From the NCBI GenBank assembly GCA_041854545.1, contig JBHACK010000123.1, positions 1-60,755 of the forward strand: 60,755 nucleotides of DNA. The letters are read 5' to 3'. The position numbers were made by a program, and so were the translations under genes. This DNA comes from Acinetobacter sp. Its GTDB lineage: Bacteria > Pseudomonadota > Gammaproteobacteria > Pseudomonadales > Moraxellaceae. This document shows positions 7,955-60,199 of this stretch, in pieces (within the stretch, counting starts at the first letter, position 1; every line of letters starts with the position of its first letter). The notes beneath the pieces are model-generated. The model saw only the letters and a program-made list of their open reading frames with translations, was not told the origin of the DNA and did not search any database.

Positions 7955-9784
7955 ATGGCAATTCAATTTTACTTAACAGAAGCAGGGCAAAGAAACGCCG
8001 TGCAAGCTGAACAACTGCAATTAAAAGTCAAATTAAAAACATTGGTACTGGGTTTGGGGCAATATGATGCACAACAACAAGCACCAAGCATGACTACATT
8101 ACAACAGTCCTATACAGAAACCGCTATCCAGTATGCACATACGCATGATGATGGAACAATGCAACTGCATAGTATGATTGAAGCAACCAAAACACAAAAA
8201 ATCTATGAGCTGGGTATTTTGACAGATGACGGCACATTATTTGCGGTGGCTAGTTCGGCGGATAAAGAGTTGCTTACATTGGTTGAAAATACTCATAGTC
8301 TATTTATGCTAGGGGTAAAATTAGTTGATGTTACCGCACCAATTCAAGTGATTGTGGATAATGATACTGGTTTAGCCTTGTCGTTAATGAGAAAGATTGA
8401 AACTTGGCAAGATGTGCCGTTGGGGTCATTATTTTTAACCACGTTAAATTTTCCAAATGCTGAAGCAGTTAGAAAGTATAAAGGCTATGGGCGTTGGAAG
8501 CGTTTTGGCGATGGTCATGCAGTTATAACGCAACAACACACAACACCTGAAAGCGGTTATGCTTGGAAAAGTCGCATAGGTGCAACTGGTGGAGAAGATA
8601 CACATCGATTATCAATTGATGAAATGCCTGAGCATAAACACAGCCAAGACGATATTTTTAACAAATTCGGAAGTAAAGCGAGCGAATCTGGCTTAGGAAC
8701 AGCTGGAAGTATTGATAGTGGTAATCCTGTGAACGAATACGGTATTGGTCATGTTGGAAACCGATGGAATAGTGCGACTGAATCAAAAGTTGGTAAAAAT
8801 AAATCACATAACAATGTGCAAAGGTCTATAGTAATAGGGGCTTGGTTGCGTATTCCTGAGCCAAGTGATTTTTTATCTTTATCAGCAAATGTGGAGCGTA
8901 TTGCTGTTGGTCAAACGGCTGAATTTAGCCTAAAAACCAAGTTACCGCCGTATTTTACCGTGCCTTACCACATTACAGGTGTAACCACTAGCCAAATTTC
9001 TCATGCTGATTTAAATGGCTTTTTAACGATTGACGAACAAGGTGAAGCAAAACTTAGTTTAAGAGCTGGTGAAGATTATGTGGCTACTGGGGATAAAACT
9101 CTATCACTTAATATTGTTGATAGCGATTTATCAGCAACAGTTGTTGTGATTGATAGTGGAGAAACTGTAGCACCGACACATACCTATTATACAGGCACAC
9201 ATCAAATTACTGTTGAACCTAATCAGATTGCAACCTTTGACCTGTTCGCAGGTGGTGGCGGTGGTGGTGGTTCACGTTGGACAACATTTAGAGAAAATAA
9301 TGATGGACAAGATGGAGCAAATGTTGTCTTGACTTTAGATAACGCCAACCTAACCGCAGGCGGTGGTAGAAAAGGCACGGAAGGTTGGTGGGGTAATGGT
9401 TCACATTATGGTAACGGCTCAGCAGGTGCAGGTGGCAATAACAATATTGTTGATGAAAATAGCTTGTTTGAAATCTTGGTTAATCAACGTGGTACAGATG
9501 GTAAAACGTATAACCGTTATGAAACCCAGCGTGGGGCTGAAGTGGTTGCAGAAGCAATGGCAGGTTCTAACGCAGGCGGTAACGGTGGCAATGGCGTTGG
9601 CGATGAGCGTTGGAGTTATGGCGGTGCAGGTGGTAGCGGTGGACGTATCAAAGCTCGTTATACTAATCACGGCGAATCTGTAGTAACCATTCAATTACAG
9701 ATTGGACAAACGGCTAAAGGTGGACAACATCAGTCTAAAGGCGGTGATGGCGGTTTTGCCTATGCAACGGTGAGCGTGGTATAG
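7955..9784 (+). CDS. Tail fibre protein
   Basis: Fibre-anchor N-terminus (LTEAG...ELGILTDDGTLFA), collar-like GGEDTHRLSIDEMPEHKH, Gly-rich C-terminal domain. Confidence 0.8.
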   Translation: MAIQFYLTEAGQRNAVQAEQLQLKVKLKTLVLGLGQYDAQQQAPSMTTLQQSYTETAIQYAHTHDDGTMQLHSMIEATKTQKIYELGILTDDGTLFAVASSADKELLTLVENTHSLFMLGVKLVDVTAPIQVIVDNDTGLALSLMRKIETWQDVPLGSLFLTTLNFPNAEAVRKYKGYGRWKRFGDGHAVITQQHTTPESGYAWKSRIGATGGEDTHRLSIDEMPEHKHSQDDIFNKFGSKASESGLGTAGSIDSGNPVNEYGIGHVGNRWNSATESKVGKNKSHNNVQRSIVIGAWLRIPEPSDFLSLSANVERIAVGQTAEFSLKTKLPPYFTVPYHITGVTTSQISHADLNGFLTIDEQGEAKLSLRAGEDYVATGDKTLSLNIVDSDLSATVVVIDSGETVAPTHTYYTGTHQITVEPNQIATFDLFAGGGGGGGSRWTTFRENNDGQDGANVVLTLDNANLTAGGGRKGTEGWWGNGSHYGNGSAGAGGNNNIVDENSLFEILVNQRGTDGKTYNRYETQRGAEVVAEAMAGSNAGGNGGNGVGDERWSYGGAGGSGGRIKARYTNHGESVVTIQLQIGQTAKGGQHQSKGGDGGFAYATVSVV

Positions 9785-55158: not shown

Positions 55159-55494
55159 ATGTTTATTGATGAAAATCCTTTTAAGTTTAAAAGTGTTACG
55201 TTGCCTTTAATTGGCAGTATCTTGTTAGGGGTATTGCCAATCGTATTAGAAAGAGCAATGCACACACGATTAATTCCGCCTGAATATCATGCGTTAATTG
55301 TGAGCATTGTTCTACCAACATTGTCATTTTACGGTCGCATGGTGTATCAACCTGAACTGCATAAAGATGCGTTAAAACAGCGTTTATTAGAAGATTTAAA
55401 GACGTATTCTGATAGACATCAAGATTTAAATGAGCCACCTAAAAAGCGTGGTCGCCCAAAAAAGGTGAAAAGTGATGAGCAAAACATTGACTGA
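55159..55494 (+). CDS. Second holin/antiholin-like protein (2 TM) with a basic AT-hook-like tail
   Basis: AAGGAG RBS; two TM helices, GR.V.QP motif, PKKRGRPKK. Confidence 0.55.
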   Translation: MFIDENPFKFKSVTLPLIGSILLGVLPIVLERAMHTRLIPPEYHALIVSIVLPTLSFYGRMVYQPELHKDALKQRLLEDLKTYSDRHQDLNEPPKKRGRPKKVKSDEQNID

Positions 55495-56110
55495 TGAACA
55501 AGTAAAAGTGATTGCTGAACAAAACGGCTTAGAATTTGCGGTTGTGAAAGCAATTCACCAAGTAGAAAGTAAGGGTGAAGGCTTTTTAGCCGATGGCAAG
55601 CCTAAGATTTTATTTGAACGGCATCAATTTTATAAACATTTGCAAAAGTTGGGCTATTATACTTTATCTCGACAAATGTCAGCTATTCGCCCTGATTTAT
55701 GTCATCGTAAGCCTACACCTAAAGGCGGTTATGGCAAAGTTGGCGAACAACATCAACGGCTTAATGATGCGATTGAGTTAGTATTGAAAGTCCGCCCTGA
55801 TGCCGATGAAAATCTGCAACAGGCGGTGCGTGAATGTGCGTGGAAGGCTTGTAGTTGGGGCTTAGGTCAAGTAATGGGCTTTAATCATAAGACGGTTGGC
55901 TTTGATAGTATTGCTGATTTTGTAACAGCAATGGAAACGGACGAAGCAAGCCAGTTACAAGCCATGATTAATTATTTAAAATCGGCAGGTCTTGAAAAAG
56001 CGATGAAAAACAAAGATTGGCGTAAAATCGCACAAGCATACAATGGCGTTGAATATGCTAAATTTAATTATCATAATCGTTTAGCTAGTGCATATAGTGC
56101 GATTGTGTGA
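55472..56110 (+). CDS. Endolysin, N-acetylmuramidase (DUF3380)
   Basis: VES.G.GF...PKILFERH.F; SWGLGQVMGFN; YNG..Y....Y..RL. Confidence 0.9.
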   Translation: MMSKTLTDEQVKVIAEQNGLEFAVVKAIHQVESKGEGFLADGKPKILFERHQFYKHLQKLGYYTLSRQMSAIRPDLCHRKPTPKGGYGKVGEQHQRLNDAIELVLKVRPDADENLQQAVRECAWKACSWGLGQVMGFNHKTVGFDSIADFVTAMETDEASQLQAMINYLKSAGLEKAMKNKDWRKIAQAYNGVEYAKFNYHNRLASAYSAIV

Positions 56111-56116
56111 TATTAT
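56108..56116 (+). promoter_or_regulatory. Extended -10 promoter TGaTATTAT for the mini-array
   Basis: Overlaps the endolysin stop codon, directly before repeat 1. Confidence 0.5.
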
Positions 56117-56204
56117 TAAGTTTACTGCATAGGTAGCTTAGAAAAGCTAGCATAAGTATGTCTTAAATCATAAAAAGTTATCTACCGCATAGGTAGTTAA
56201 AAAA
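56117..56204 (+). CRISPR. Type I-F-like mini-array: two 28-bp repeats and one 32-bp spacer, no cas genes
   Basis: R1 TAAGTTTACTGCATAGGTAGCTTAGAAA; spacer AGCTAGCATAAGTATGTCTTAAATCATAAAAA; R2 GTTATCTACCGCATAGGTAGTTAAAAAA. Confidence 0.82.
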
Positions 56205-56236
56205 ATCCCCTAACTTTTTTGGTTAGGGGATTTTTT
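56199..56236. terminator. Bidirectional terminator after the mini-array
   Basis: AAAAAATCCCCTAAC...GTTAGGGGATTTTTT. Confidence 0.85.
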
Positions 56237-56253: not shown

Positions 56254-56523
56254 TTAAACTGAAAGTCCAAATAATGAAAATGCTGAACGAGCGAATACAA
56301 GGTCATTGTATGGGTCTTCAGGCATATCAGCAAACTCTTGATGAGTTAATGTTACAGTACCCATTTTATCTAATTTAGCGAGCGTACGTCCGCTAATAAT
56401 ATATGCTTTTACAGTTCCATCTTCCATTTTGTCGAATGCTACACGACAAAGCAAAGGTTTCCCATTAATCTCAACATCTAATCCGATTGTTGAGATATGT
56501 TTGACGATTTTTGGCTTTTTCAT
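56254..56523 (-). CDS. Small hypothetical protein, candidate anti-defence/Acr
   Basis: AGGAG RBS and a strong operator-containing promoter. Confidence 0.7.
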   Translation of the reverse strand: MKKPKIVKHISTIGLDVEINGKPLLCRVAFDKMEDGTVKAYIISGRTLAKLDKMGTVTLTHQEFADMPEDPYNDLVFARSAFSLFGLSV

Positions 56524-56529
56524 ATTTAA

Positions 56530-56626
56530 AACTCCTGCCCATAAGGCGTTGGATTGTTGATTTGGGCTTTCGCCCTGTTGATGAGCTTATTATAAGGTAA
56601 CGTACGTTACCATGCAAGTACTTTTT
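56530..56626 (-). repeat. 97-bp direct repeat, copy 1: promoter, palindromic operator, leader hairpin and RBS
   Basis: One mismatch to 59472-59568; TTGCAT-17-TATAAT enclosing GGTAACGTACGTTACC. Confidence 0.95.
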
Positions 56627-56844
56627 TAAATATTTTTCATTTTTTTTACAGCTTTAATAATGAATAATTTTAACTGCTTGTTTTTTTTAGCTGTATCTAG
56701 AATTTCAGCTATCTCAATTTCTTCTTCATCGTCTAAATAGAAATCAATAACGTAACGTCTTACTTTTCTTTTTTCAGCGTAACGTTGTTGCTTGTTTTTT
56801 TGTTTATGGTTCACAAACATTCTCTCCAAAGACAAAAGCCACAT
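56626..56844 (-). CDS. Small ribbon-helix-helix-like DNA-binding protein (candidate Aca-like repressor)
   Basis: QQRYAEKR..RRY.IDF......EI...L......L..FI..A pattern; likely start 56820 after GGAGAG. Confidence 0.5.
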   Translation of the reverse strand: MWLLSLERMFVNHKQKNKQQRYAEKRKVRRYVIDFYLDDEEEIEIAEILDTAKKNKQLKLFIIKAVKKMKNI

Positions 56845-56848
56845 CTTA

Positions 56849-57250
56849 CTAATGATGTGGCTTGTGATTAAACATTAAAGACATCACAACAATAAGTTCA
56901 TCATGATGCATTTGAACGAATTTTCTGTTATGAACAGGTAATAACCAGCCACTTATGCGACTGTTTGAAAGTTTTAGCTCACTATTATTAATCAGCTCTT
57001 TGAGTTGTTGGTTATCAATATCTAATCGTTGCATAGTGAGCATTAATACATCATTTGTATTTTGATTATCTAAATCTTCCAACAACATTAATCCTGCTTT
57101 TTTATGATGAAGTAATTCTTCATCTAAAAACAAGTAAATATCTGATTGTTTGCTCTCAAACTTTCTGCAAATCGCACGATAATTTGCGTAAGCAATATTT
57201 GCATCACTTACGCTATGGTCTAAAGTTTGATTGATGAAAATATGATACAT
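56849..57250 (-). CDS. Protein with a C-terminal DUF1456/YehS-like HTH
   Basis: NDVL......L......L.........S.S.I.GWL......F..M..DEL. Confidence 0.5.
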   Translation of the reverse strand: MYHIFINQTLDHSVSDANIAYANYRAICRKFESKQSDIYLFLDEELLHHKKAGLMLLEDLDNQNTNDVLMLTMQRLDIDNQQLKELINNSELKLSNSRISGWLLPVHNRKFVQMHHDELIVVMSLMFNHKPHH

Positions 57251-57308
57251 AATATCTCTTGATTAATCAAAAAATAATAATAGTGTATCATATTTATCTT
57301 GGTGATGA

Positions 57309-58208
57309 CTATCTCAACATAGCAATAGTGTGAGCGGTCATTTGGTGAGCATACCACTGCATGAGCTTTCTTCGCTCATCAGTATATTTAGCTTTATTGT
57401 AAACGCCACGCACACCATTTATTTTGTGTGCGAGACAAGTTTCAATAACATCATCTCGCCACTTATTGCTCTCATAACAATAGGTAGCAAAAATATGACG
57501 AAATCCATGTAGGACTTGGCGACCGCTATAGCCTGCATGATGAATTGCACGGCTAAGAGCGATAGCATTAAATGCTTTATTTTTCTTTATTGGTGATGGA
57601 AAAATAAACTCGCTTGTTGGATATTGTTGTTTTTGTTCATTTAGCAAACGAATAACAATATCAGAAAGTGGAATAATATGTTGTGAACGCATTTTCATAC
57701 GTTCCGCAGGAATCGTCCATGTTTTATTTTTAAGGTCGATTTCCGACCATTTTGCATTTAGCACTTCACTACTACGAAGTGCTGTAAAGAATAAAATAAG
57801 AAACGCTCGTTTTGCTTGAACACTCAGTTTACCTTTACAATTGACCGCATTAAAAAAAGCGGTCAATTCATGTGGTTGTAAAAAAGAATGATGTTTTTCT
57901 GTATGTCTAAAACATACAGTTAAAATATCTGTTGCAGGATTATGTTGGATATATTCAGCTATAACAGCATAGCTGAATACTCTTTTAATCATTTGACAAA
58001 CAATGCGTTCTGTCTTTGTTTTTTGCTCTGTTTCTAGTTTTTGGCAAATAACAAGAATATGAGCAGGTTTGATGTCTTTAATCAACATATCCCCTAAAAT
58101 AGGGAATATGTGGTTATTAAAGATTGCTAAACGAGCATCTTGGGTTTTTAATACCCAAGATTTTCGATTTTTTTCGTACCATTCTAAGGCGATTTCTTTA
58201 AACAACAT
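57309..58208 (-). CDS. int: Tyrosine recombinase/integrase (P4-like, no arm-binding domain)
   Basis: Catalytic residues R (LRSSE), K (RMK), HGFR, LAH and Y (VYN). Confidence 0.88.
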   Translation of the reverse strand: MLFKEIALEWYEKNRKSWVLKTQDARLAIFNNHIFPILGDMLIKDIKPAHILVICQKLETEQKTKTERIVCQMIKRVFSYAVIAEYIQHNPATDILTVCFRHTEKHHSFLQPHELTAFFNAVNCKGKLSVQAKRAFLILFFTALRSSEVLNAKWSEIDLKNKTWTIPAERMKMRSQHIIPLSDIVIRLLNEQKQQYPTSEFIFPSPIKKNKAFNAIALSRAIHHAGYSGRQVLHGFRHIFATYCYESNKWRDDVIETCLAHKINGVRGVYNKAKYTDERRKLMQWYAHQMTAHTIAMLR

Positions 58209-58218
58209 GGCACTCTCC

Positions 58219-59025
58219 TTATGCCCAACGCAAGATTCGTTCTTGCGTTTCTTTATTTAATAAATTCCACGCAATTAAATCTTTTCCTGTGAATTTCTCA
58301 GGCTTTATTTTTTTACTATGGTATTTATTTAGTAAATACATCTCTGGTGATGTAGTTTTAAACATCTCTTTGTATATAAGTTGTTCAAAATTTGGATTAC
58401 GTTGTGCAAAATAATAATAAGCATCGTCATCACATCTAGTGTGTGATTCATTGTTTTGTTTTGCAAAATATTTTACACAATGAGTCTCACCCTTACGGAT
58501 TAGATAATCCGCTTGATTTTCCCACCAGTGCATATCTGGCGGTGCATTGGTTTCCAAAAGTACGGGGTTGTTTTTTCGCTCTTCAATGCTATGCGGTAAA
58601 GCAAAAACACTTCTTGCACCATCATAAAATGCAAAATATTCATTAGTGTCAAGGTTTTTAAATACGCCGTGCATATTACCACCACAAGAGCGGTAAGCAT
58701 ACAATTGGCGTGTATGGTCAATAAAATACCCCCAACTTGAATAAATAAATAAGTTGCGGTCTTTTGGTGCGACAAGATGTGCTTTTTCGCCCCAAGTATT
58801 GTCTGCTACTTCATAGCAGATATTAAATGGGAAATTATTGTCATCTTGTGCGAAAGCGTACAAGTCTAAGAAATTTTGACGTTTATTGGCATCAAGTTCT
58901 TGCAAACGAATCGTAGATGAAGAACGAGCATGTGGCTTGTTGTAATAATCATTCGGGGCAGTAATTACAGCAAGAGTTTTAAATTGAGCGAAAGTTTTGC
59001 GAGAAATTGGTAATACAATTTTCAT
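58219..59025 (-). CDS. Hypothetical protein
   Basis: 268 aa; AGGA RBS; 10 bp upstream of the integrase. Confidence 0.7.
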   Translation of the reverse strand: MKIVLPISRKTFAQFKTLAVITAPNDYYNKPHARSSSTIRLQELDANKRQNFLDLYAFAQDDNNFPFNICYEVADNTWGEKAHLVAPKDRNLFIYSSWGYFIDHTRQLYAYRSCGGNMHGVFKNLDTNEYFAFYDGARSVFALPHSIEERKNNPVLLETNAPPDMHWWENQADYLIRKGETHCVKYFAKQNNESHTRCDDDAYYYFAQRNPNFEQLIYKEMFKTTSPEMYLLNKYHSKKIKPEKFTGKDLIAWNLLNKETQERILRWA

Positions 59026-59056
59026 TTTTTAAATCCTAAATTTTTAGTAAAACAGT

Positions 59057-59088
59057 CCTATAAAGACAGTTTAAGCTGTCTTTATAGG
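59057..59088. other. 13-bp inverted repeat (terminator or operator)
   Basis: CCTATAAAGACAG-TTTAAG-CTGTCTTTATAGG. Confidence 0.6.
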
Positions 59089-59105
59089 GTTATTTTTGAG
59101 TGTTA

Positions 59106-59465
59106 TTAGTTGTCGCTGATTTCTTCTTGAGCTATATGGATTATTTCATCAACTTTGTTCCACACAGCTTTGCGGATGCCCATTCCTTGTGGGCGGTTGA
59201 TGATTGCCTGTTCTAGGCTCCAGCGACAAGAGTTAATATCCATATTGAATGGAAGATTAGAGAAAAAACAGATGGCTTGTTGGCTTTTGATTTCCCACAA
59301 TCCTAACTCGATGTTTCCTTGAACATCATCTAATAATGCAGTTACATTGCGTGGATTTGTGGCTAACCATTGCTCATACATTTCTGGCACGTCAGAAATG
59401 CTCAAGTCTGGAATGGTCATATTGTGCTTTTTAAGATAGGCTTCACGGATTTGTTGTAAAGTCAT
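59106..59465 (-). CDS. Small hypothetical protein, candidate anti-defence/Acr
   Basis: Driven by the second copy of the promoter cassette. Confidence 0.7.
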   Translation of the reverse strand: MTLQQIREAYLKKHNMTIPDLSISDVPEMYEQWLATNPRNVTALLDDVQGNIELGLWEIKSQQAICFFSNLPFNMDINSCRWSLEQAIINRPQGMGIRKAVWNKVDEIIHIAQEEISDN

Positions 59466-59471
59466 TTTGAG

Positions 59472-59568
59472 AACTCCTGCCCATAAGGCGTTGGATTGTT
59501 GATTTGGGCTTTCGCCCTGTTGATGAGCTTATTATACGGTAACGTACGTTACCATGCAAGTACTTTTT
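59472..59568 (-). repeat. 97-bp direct repeat, copy 2
   Basis: See 56530-56626. Confidence 0.95.
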
Positions 59569-59587
59569 GCTATTTATTGACTATATT

Positions 59588-60199
59588 TTATTCTATTATA
59601 GAATGCTCCAACAAGCGACTTACAATCATAGTCTTCATTGCGATATGAAAAGAGCAGTATAATCCTACAGCCAAACCCAAATAATAATAAACAATCTCAT
59701 TGTAAGTAGTTAGTGTAATCCAATTTGTATGGATAGGTACAAATAAGCAAAAATCAAGTAATAAGTAAACTACAAATGCAAGAACAGAAATGATTTTATA
59801 TTTTCTATTGCTGAACAAGATATTAAACTTAATTGAATGACTAGGTTTAATATCAACGAGCAAAAAAGGAAAACAATCATAAATATTTTTCGCATTATCT
59901 TCCAAATCATTAACATTTCTATCTATTAAGTGAAAGATAAGTTGAAATTTATATTTATTGTGTAAAAGTAAAGTATTCAGCCTAGCTTGAATAACACTTG
60001 CAGGCATATTTTGATTTTCTTTAAACTCATTGTATAACTCATGTATTTTTTGAATGTTTTCTAATTTTTCATTATATATAACTTTTAAGTTATTATTTAT
60101 TTTGTATCCACGATATAATCTATAAATAAAGTATATGAAAAAGGCAATCAATGAATATTCAGTATAATTTTGAAAACTGGATAAAATAGAAGAGTGCAT
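59588..60199 (-). CDS. Very AT-rich three-TM membrane protein (moron)
   Basis: One N-terminal and two C-terminal TM helices; promoter-like TTGCAA-17-CATGAT at 60282-60310. Confidence 0.65.
   Translation of the reverse strand: MHSSILSSFQNYTEYSLIAFFIYFIYRLYRGYKINNNLKVIYNEKLENIQKIHELYNEFKENQNMPASVIQARLNTLLLHNKYKFQLIFHLIDRNVNDLEDNAKNIYDCFPFLLVDIKPSHSIKFNILFSNRKYKIISVLAFVVYLLLDFCLFVPIHTNWITLTTYNEIVYYYLGLAVGLYCSFHIAMKTMIVSRLLEHSIIE

Follow-up and report, generated by a model that had tools for sequence, protein, structure and literature searches.

A one-spacer type I-F CRISPR unit on a P1-like phage, likely directed through the host Csy–Cas3 machinery against the integrase gene of a rival element

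Introduction

Miniature CRISPR arrays carried by viruses have been interpreted as instruments of conflict among viruses (Medvedeva et al. 2019, PMC6858448; see also the review PMC11656645, the model PMC7099407 and Faure et al. 2019 as cited in these). In the accessible parts of these sources, the targets of mini-arrays are described as mostly related viruses, recombination with host arrays is proposed as the origin of phage mini-arrays (PMC7099407), and one spacer of the SPV1 mini-array matches an integrated plasmid. Here we describe a single-spacer type I-F unit at positions 56108–56236 of contig JBHACK010000123.1 (Acinetobacter sp., GenBank assembly GCA_041854545.1), the whole of which, 60,755 nucleotides, is referred to as the window. 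Sequence comparison suggests a CRISPR cassette with a single spacer, carried by a P1-like phage, that likely borrows the Csy–Cas3 machinery of its host against a rival element. The inner halves of its repeats are cognate to the host repeat, the host encodes cas3 and csy1–csy4, a CC-flanked protospacer is present in an integrase gene, and neither the phage nor the assembled host contains a match to the spacer.

Architecture of the unit

The unit is composed of two trimmed repeats on either side of a 32-base spacer, between a candidate promoter and a terminator:

56117–56144, plus strand: repeat 1; the first 10 bases have diverged and the last 18 are those of the host repeat
56122–56136, plus strand: weak stem of repeat 1, with two U–G pairs
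56137–56144, plus strand: 8-base handle of repeat 1, seen in the sequence
56145–56176, plus strand: spacer of 32 bases, which in reverse complement codes for FYDLRHTYAS, catalytic box of a small tyrosine-integrase family
56177–56204, plus strand: repeat 2; the first 20 bases (GTTAT plus a perfect hairpin) are those of the host repeat
56137–56196, plus strand: predicted mature CRISPR RNA (crRNA) of 60 bases (8 of handle, 32 of spacer, 20 of repeat), on the presumed processing
56108–56116, plus strand: candidate extended −10 promoter TG-n-TATTAT, seen in the sequence and putatively active
56200–56236, no strand assigned: two-way intrinsic terminator by its fold, between the endolysin gene and a facing 89-residue open reading frame (ORF), kept in relatives that lack the unit
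55472–56110, plus strand: endolysin gene (N-acetylmuramidase; Pfam PF11860, E 5e-54; PHROGs endolysin)
56254–56523, minus strand: the facing 89-residue ORF, function not assigned, without a PHROGs or Pfam family, sharing the terminator

The pattern of a handle, then 28–36 bases, then a hairpin led by GTT has a single occurrence in the window and none in 300 shuffled windows. The handle of repeat 1 reads CTTAGAAA, the hairpins of both repeats contain a GCATA loop, and the handle of repeat 2 is absent, the sequence merging at this point into the A-run of the terminator. The initial annotation of this DNA had placed the unit and the 60-base span 56137–56196 as given above, and had noted the perfect hairpin and lost handle of repeat 2; all of this is borne out by the sequence. 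Repeat 1, which it took for a full 28-bp repeat, agrees with the host repeat in its last 18 bases only. Canonical sizes of type I-F crRNAs are given in the accessible text of two studies (PMC10651486; PMC10097628).

The extended −10 element is present as annotated, its TG being contributed by the TGA stop codon of the endolysin gene. No −35 match was found upstream of it, and a two-hexamer promoter scan did not list 56108–56116. If this element is used, transcription would start near 56122–56124, at the foot of the repeat-1 stem. The terminator hairpin folds with an energy of −22.2 kcal/mol (z −5.19; none of 200 shuffled sequences reached this stability), and a pattern scan for terminators did not list it. 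The initial view of a strong terminator as a dedicated part of the unit is weakened by its presence in relatives without the unit. A search of the window against Rfam gave no match at the gathering score. The absence of cas genes from the window was also confirmed, with none among 67 ORFs searched with PHROGs or the 37 of these searched with Pfam, on a contig that may be an incomplete phage genome.

The spacer encodes an integrase catalytic box

The Trp codon that follows FYDLRHTYAS in the integrase genes supplies the CC protospacer-adjacent motif (PAM) of type I-F systems. The closest protospacer is found on a 1,267-base contig (run X5, record 10), which aligns to 56145–56178 without a gap and agrees at 33 of 34 letters; the letters on its PAM side end in CC. 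On either side of the match, its translation agrees with the flanking residues of integrase P0014, the contig of which is also 1,267 bases long; run X5 belongs to a different study than the unit-bearing run X1, the possible source run. BLAST matches of the spacer, individually weak, fell in integrase genes in 6 of 17 phage rows and in 9 of the 20 plasmid rows listed out of 42. The integrase of Moraxella osloensis plasmid pSKB0120-9, for example, reads FYDLRHSYASW, with the CC in place and 8 mismatches to the spacer.

The matched stretch is among the most conserved of the protein. Among the best 120 of 203 homologues, the Trp that forms the PAM is present in all 120, FYDLRHTYASWL is read in 12, and the four best-conserved of 265 windows of 11 residues all overlap the matched stretch. 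Within the genes of L025, one of the loci described below, 20 of 379 CC or GG sites fall in a Trp codon, a figure obtained post hoc. The CC PAM is retained at each of the eight family loci compared, which differ from the spacer at 6–10 positions, mostly third codon positions, with mismatches in the seed in most of the distant targets.

The initial annotation saw no protospacer in the window, and none is present: the best match in the genome has 9 mismatches, with no site within 8. An apparent integrase motif on the phage's own contig is the spacer itself. A degenerate form of the protospacer was also searched in 185,579 species genomes, and its two matches, in unrelated taxa, with 7 and 11 mismatches and without CC, were rejected.

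Elements carrying the matched integrase

Among the family loci with context, members of the integrase family occur in two kinds of element. Three loci belong to filamentous phages: L025 and L141, with Rep_trans, inovirus coat B, DUF2523 and Zot, and L026, with only Zot. L004, L027 and L028 are one kind of 4-kb Rep_3 circle. These mixed contexts point to either a filamentous phage or a 3.5–4 kb Rep_3 circle as the carrier of the matched integrase, with about even odds between the two. A tree built from 53 chosen rows places P0014 and P0121 (3,002-base contig) together with P0009 (3,589-base contig) and P0012 (7,923-base contig) inside the L025 clade, and near-identical integrases are found on both 9.3-kb and 3.7-kb contigs. 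Matching contig sizes link the P0018 cluster to small circles; no such link was found for P0014, as a lone match of 1,267 bases comes from another source. Relatives of P0014 were found in none of the viral contigs, in 1 of 60 genus genomes (36%) and in 2 of 130 family genomes (55%).

The Rep_3 circles of 3.5–4 kb (L004, L027, L028 and clusters P0011 and P0018) encode integrases near-identical to those of 9-kb filamentous phages, and may be satellites or integrating companions of these phages. Separately, the Moraxella-group filamentous prophage L141 contains a RelE-type toxin–antitoxin pair between Zot and the integrase (8676–9288).

The cognate host system

A type I-F system with a similar repeat in the host lineage, one of the checks proposed with the initial annotation, is present. 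Host contig C164 encodes cas3 (open to the contig edge), csy1, csy2, csy3 and csy4, all above NCBIfam cut-offs, and three host arrays (C21, C25 and C180) have a common 28-base repeat and spacers of 32–33 bases. The last 18 bases of repeat 1 are identical in 24 host copies and the first 20 bases of repeat 2 in 26; over their full length, the repeats match the host repeat at 22 of 28 positions (repeat 1, in register) and 25 of 28 positions (repeat 2), the outer parts having diverged. None of the 21 host spacers read has a match in the phage or in the other loci compared. A host CysRS is closest to that of Acinetobacter baumannii (74%, in a collection with few chromosomes), Moraxella porci and M. 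pluranimalium are among the members of the Csy3 cluster, and the host probably belongs to the Moraxellaceae.

The host system has further features of its own. The cas3–csy1 gap (C164:2261–2470, L138) contains a CreA/CreR-like unit on the minus strand, the 14-base spacer of which matches a CC-flanked site about 75 bases off at 13 of 14 positions, the mismatch being position 6. This regulatory spacer and the phage spacer have a 10-base stretch in common, which is not part of the seed and was dismissed as a chance match. In array C180, about 390 bases including a small ORF-like stretch (1544–1936) split the first repeat from the rest, as by an insertion, and one host spacer is duplicated in tandem in C21 (7631–7691).

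The carrier phage

The window is the entire contig C123 of a 2.28-Mb assembly of 238 contigs. Its 67 ORFs include PHROGs families for DarB-like, Hdf-like, Ulx-like and PmgG-like proteins, portal, sheath, terminase and endolysin, to which Pfam (37 ORFs) adds DarA and ddrB domains. Its terminase is 52–60% identical to those of Acinetobacter phage and plasmid records and 32% identical to P1 PacB. Judged by this gene content, the carrier is a P1-like phage, and the initial term 'prophage' is not supported, the window being the whole contig of a P1-like element. The phage's own recombinase belongs to a different family than the integrase matched by the spacer. A 2.9-kb segment of the window (56520–59590) with a tyrosine recombinase and four ORFs without assigned function lies between 129-base direct repeats that are 89% alike and contain an identical 16-base palindrome; it looks like a mobile cassette or a repeated promoter.

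Related units at the same locus and in a second phage

Two contigs from other runs, X3 record 1 (869 bases) and X4 record 7 (732 bases), span the unit locus, and all their listed differences but one are within the spacer, indicating that X3 and X4 hold other spacers in the same scaffold. The layout of two repeats 32 bases apart is thus kept in related phages, as the initial annotation had proposed to check. The exception, in X3, changes the top U–G pair of the first stem to U–A. The extended −10 shows no listed difference in either contig and the repeat-1 bases show no listed change in X4, the endolysin gene of which differs at some tens of positions.

Empty alleles are also found. In X2 record 12, the endolysin stop codon is joined to the terminator with 32 other letters (the short side, of 21 letters, is weak alone), and X5 record 15 has the same junction and no unit. 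Because the terminator is kept at this empty allele, it is older than the unit. Run X1 contains the unit and no other contig on the spacer, X5 contains the target and the empty allele, and X2, from the same study as X5, contains the empty allele and a contig starting at 56145; this distribution is a hint only. Contigs of 86–87 bases in X5 and X7 were rejected as phage alleles, as they are host array units. No unit was found at 18 endolysin loci, four of which end at the gene, and matches to the unit DNA in 246 genus genomes were host arrays, terminators or a distant integrase without a PAM, none of 18 inspected loci being shown to be like the unit.

A second case was found in a set of 80 terminase loci of P1-like phages, covered as regions of about 20 kb and not as complete genomes, which contain one true unit, L043, with none in three shuffles of all loci; a match in L046 is chance-like and inside coding DNA. 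In L043 (9790–9950; the same as L117, an IMG/VR contig of 66 kb), a half-repeat I-F unit stands directly before the terminase gene of an Acinetobacter-type P1-like phage. It is built from a stop codon overlapping TG-n-TAnnnT, a weak first stem 5–7 bases on, a handle, a 32-base spacer, a perfect hairpin and a terminator. Its spacer codes for the beginning of the terminase in sister phages, its best sites have CC in 79 of the 80 loci, and it has 4 mismatches in L036 and L038, all at third codon positions, versus 8 in its own gene. The predicted targeting by L043 shows the classical related-virus pattern, and its build shows that the unit layout is no one-off. A wider pattern scan returned 15 viral loci, of which five with one or two matches were inspected: L148 (IMG/VR contig of 36 kb) is a two-repeat I-F unit with a second repeat that has no handle and leads into a terminator; the rest are longer arrays or L043 itself.

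Proposed mechanism and alternative explanations

We hypothesize that the unit would be transcribed from the extended −10 or via read-through from the lysis genes. Cas6f would then cleave after both hairpins, stabilizing the weak first one by its binding; the Csy complex would take up the 60-base guide and Cas3 would degrade the double-stranded form of the rival. The spacer could be swapped through recombination with host arrays, with the 18- and 20-base host-identical halves as homology arms. Targeting of a competing element was one of three functions first suggested, and the integrase protospacer with its CC PAM favours it over promoter repression and an RNA decoy.

Several points weigh against this explanation. 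The repeat-1 hairpin has a folding energy of −0.9 kcal/mol versus −5.5 kcal/mol for repeat 2, and its pairing probability is 0.0 in four predicted transcripts, where it is out-competed by pairing between the handle and the start of the spacer. The initial statement that repeat 1 keeps its stem is weakened by this; a start site inside the stem would remove it. On the target side, the named relatives differ from the spacer at 6–10 of 32 positions, and the differing letter of the 33/34 match, although probably near an end, may lie in the seed. No sequence within 3 mismatches of the spacer was found in 300 family genomes, and the exact two-repeat pattern, the spacer core and the degenerate protospacer each gave no match in IMG/VR viral contigs. 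On the host side, a search for cas1 in the assembly, which is 93% complete, was negative, and the presumed link between phage and host is based on binning and repeat identity. The scaffold change in X3 is seen in one contig at a depth of 4.3. Finally, recombination with host arrays would keep the same inner halves, so that the pattern alone is no proof of function and the earlier view of the degeneracy as functional is weakened. The first hairpin could be rescued if Cas6f binds it or if transcription reads through from the lysis genes; divergent first repeats undergo processing in CreA, according to the accessible part of PMC10097628, and a literature search on U–G pairs in the Cas6f/Csy4 stem found nothing.

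The last of these points is also the core of one alternative, in which the repeat–spacer–repeat was passively acquired from a host array by recombination and confers no benefit. The conserved parts are exactly the arms that flank any host spacer, the terminator predates the unit, two relatives lack the unit and the first stem is weak. Passive capture does not, however, account for the diverged 5′ arm of repeat 1, which still base-pairs with the 3′ arm, nor for the contrast between an endolysin drift of several percent and the promoter-like and repeat-1 bases, unchanged in X4 and with one pair-keeping change in X3; nor does it predict the independent unit of L043, with the same geometry and a self-avoiding target. 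We therefore consider it unlikely.

The weak, out-competed first stem and the pairing of the handle with the spacer start would equally suit an RNA decoy, in which repeat 1 remains uncut and a spacer-length RNA with the repeat-2 hairpin titrates Cas6f and Cas7f in the manner of an RNA anti-CRISPR; RacrIF1 acts via RNA upstream of the Cas6f hairpin, as described in the accessible text of PMC10651486. A decoy needs neither an intact handle, nor the exact 32-base spacing seen in the phage and its relatives, nor a PAM-flanked near-perfect target, and the Racr-like decoy first suggested, as a solitary repeat, is not supported, the unit having two repeats, a handle and a target. In addition, no match to the phage exists among the 21 host spacers read, and Pfam finds no anti-CRISPR family among the 37 ORFs; we give this explanation a similarly small chance.

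Considerably less probable is silencing, in which Csy bound inside the integrase gene of diverged family members blocks expression or primes host spacer uptake against the family. It draws on the retained CC PAM and predominantly third-position mismatches of the eight family loci, but the closest target is near perfect, cas3 is present and most of the distant targets have seed mismatches. Least probable of all is a Cracr-type regulator that uses a short match next to the PAM to repress the promoter of a host cas or toxin gene: the unit has the divergent-first, conserved-second repeat layout of CreA and Cracr, prophage units of this kind are reported for Acinetobacter baumannii and Moraxella osloensis in the accessible part of 10.1101/2023.03.03.530964, and the cas1 promoter is missing from the assembly, but the best PAM-proximal match in the genome spans 9 positions, no better than for shuffled spacers (one site with CC and 9 matched positions versus a mean of 6.1 for 60 shuffled spacers), the cas3–csy1 gap offers at most 4 matched positions, the seed is unlike that of the host's own regulatory unit, and the spacer has its full length and encodes integrase sequence.

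Implications

If the unit acts as a cassette against a rival element, it would extend the viral mini-array idea to conflict between unrelated virus types. According to the accessible text of PMC6813254, tailed phages can be blocked by filamentous phages, and in Pseudomonas the host was killed when CRISPR targeted an integrated filamentous phage; such a guide would then decide which elements share a cell. The locus is a bacterial case that combines a target and its PAM with a cognate host system, other spacers in relatives and an allele without the unit, in which the trimmed repeat layout of regulatory CRISPR-like RNAs is apparently used with a full-length cutting guide. It also draws attention to a poorly described family, the 3.5–4 kb integrase circles. 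A broader proposal, which we advance tentatively and would not yet bet on, is that Moraxellaceae P1-like phage-plasmids carry a reloadable 90-base cartridge with half-repeats that are at once processing signals and homology arms, and that the present copy sends the host I-F system against the integrase box of filamentous phages, the PAM being unable to change without loss of the invariant Trp; a tailed phage with double-stranded DNA would then wage CRISPR conflict on phages with single-stranded DNA and on the small circles that accompany them.

Comparison with known systems

The unit resembles virus-borne mini-arrays in having one spacer (one or two are described for viruses without cas genes), no cas genes, host-type repeats, a protospacer with a cognate PAM in another mobile element (33/34, CC), no self target, and relatives with different spacers at the same locus. 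In the accessible parts of PMC6858448, PMC11656645 and PMC7099407, however, mini-arrays have host-identical repeats and mostly closely related viral targets, whereas this unit retains only the inner 18 and 20 bases of its repeats and is directed at an unrelated target of the filamentous-phage or small-plasmid kind, the target family occurring in filamentous phages and Rep_3 circles.

With CreA/CreR and Cracr, as far as the accessible text of PMC10097628, 10.1101/2024.10.29.618823 and 10.1101/2023.03.03.530964 describes them, the unit shares type I-F, Moraxellaceae hosts and a divergent first repeat with hairpin and handle before a conserved second; both repeats have hairpins, as PMC10097628 describes for crRNA-like regulators. 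The spacers of these regulators are short or partly matched, are directed at cas or toxin promoters and give products of 46–54 bases, whereas the present spacer is 32 bases long and near-perfect to a rival's coding sequence. A hallmark given in the accessible part of the Cracr preprint (10.1101/2024.10.29.618823), agreement of 9 or more PAM-proximal bases with the spacer of CreA/CreR or with the promoter of a cas or toxin gene, was not found in the assembly, outside which the cas1 promoter lies. Like RacrIF1, the unit is a phage-borne I-F repeat mimic behind a promoter, with a Cas6f hairpin; RacrIF1 is a solitary repeat yielding a product without a 5′ handle, as accessible in PMC10651486, whereas here two repeats 60 bases apart, an intact handle and a target are present.

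A literature search, to which most subscription papers were closed and which did not cover supplementary mini-array tables, returned no report of a tailed-phage mini-array against a filamentous phage. Phage ICP1 is said to use type I-F guides against an unrelated small mobile element, the PLE satellites, with its own cas genes and arrays; compared with that system, this phage brings only about 90 bases and would rely on host proteins. The unit works, as we read it, like a viral mini-array that departs from the described ones in two features, full repeat identity and a closely related target.
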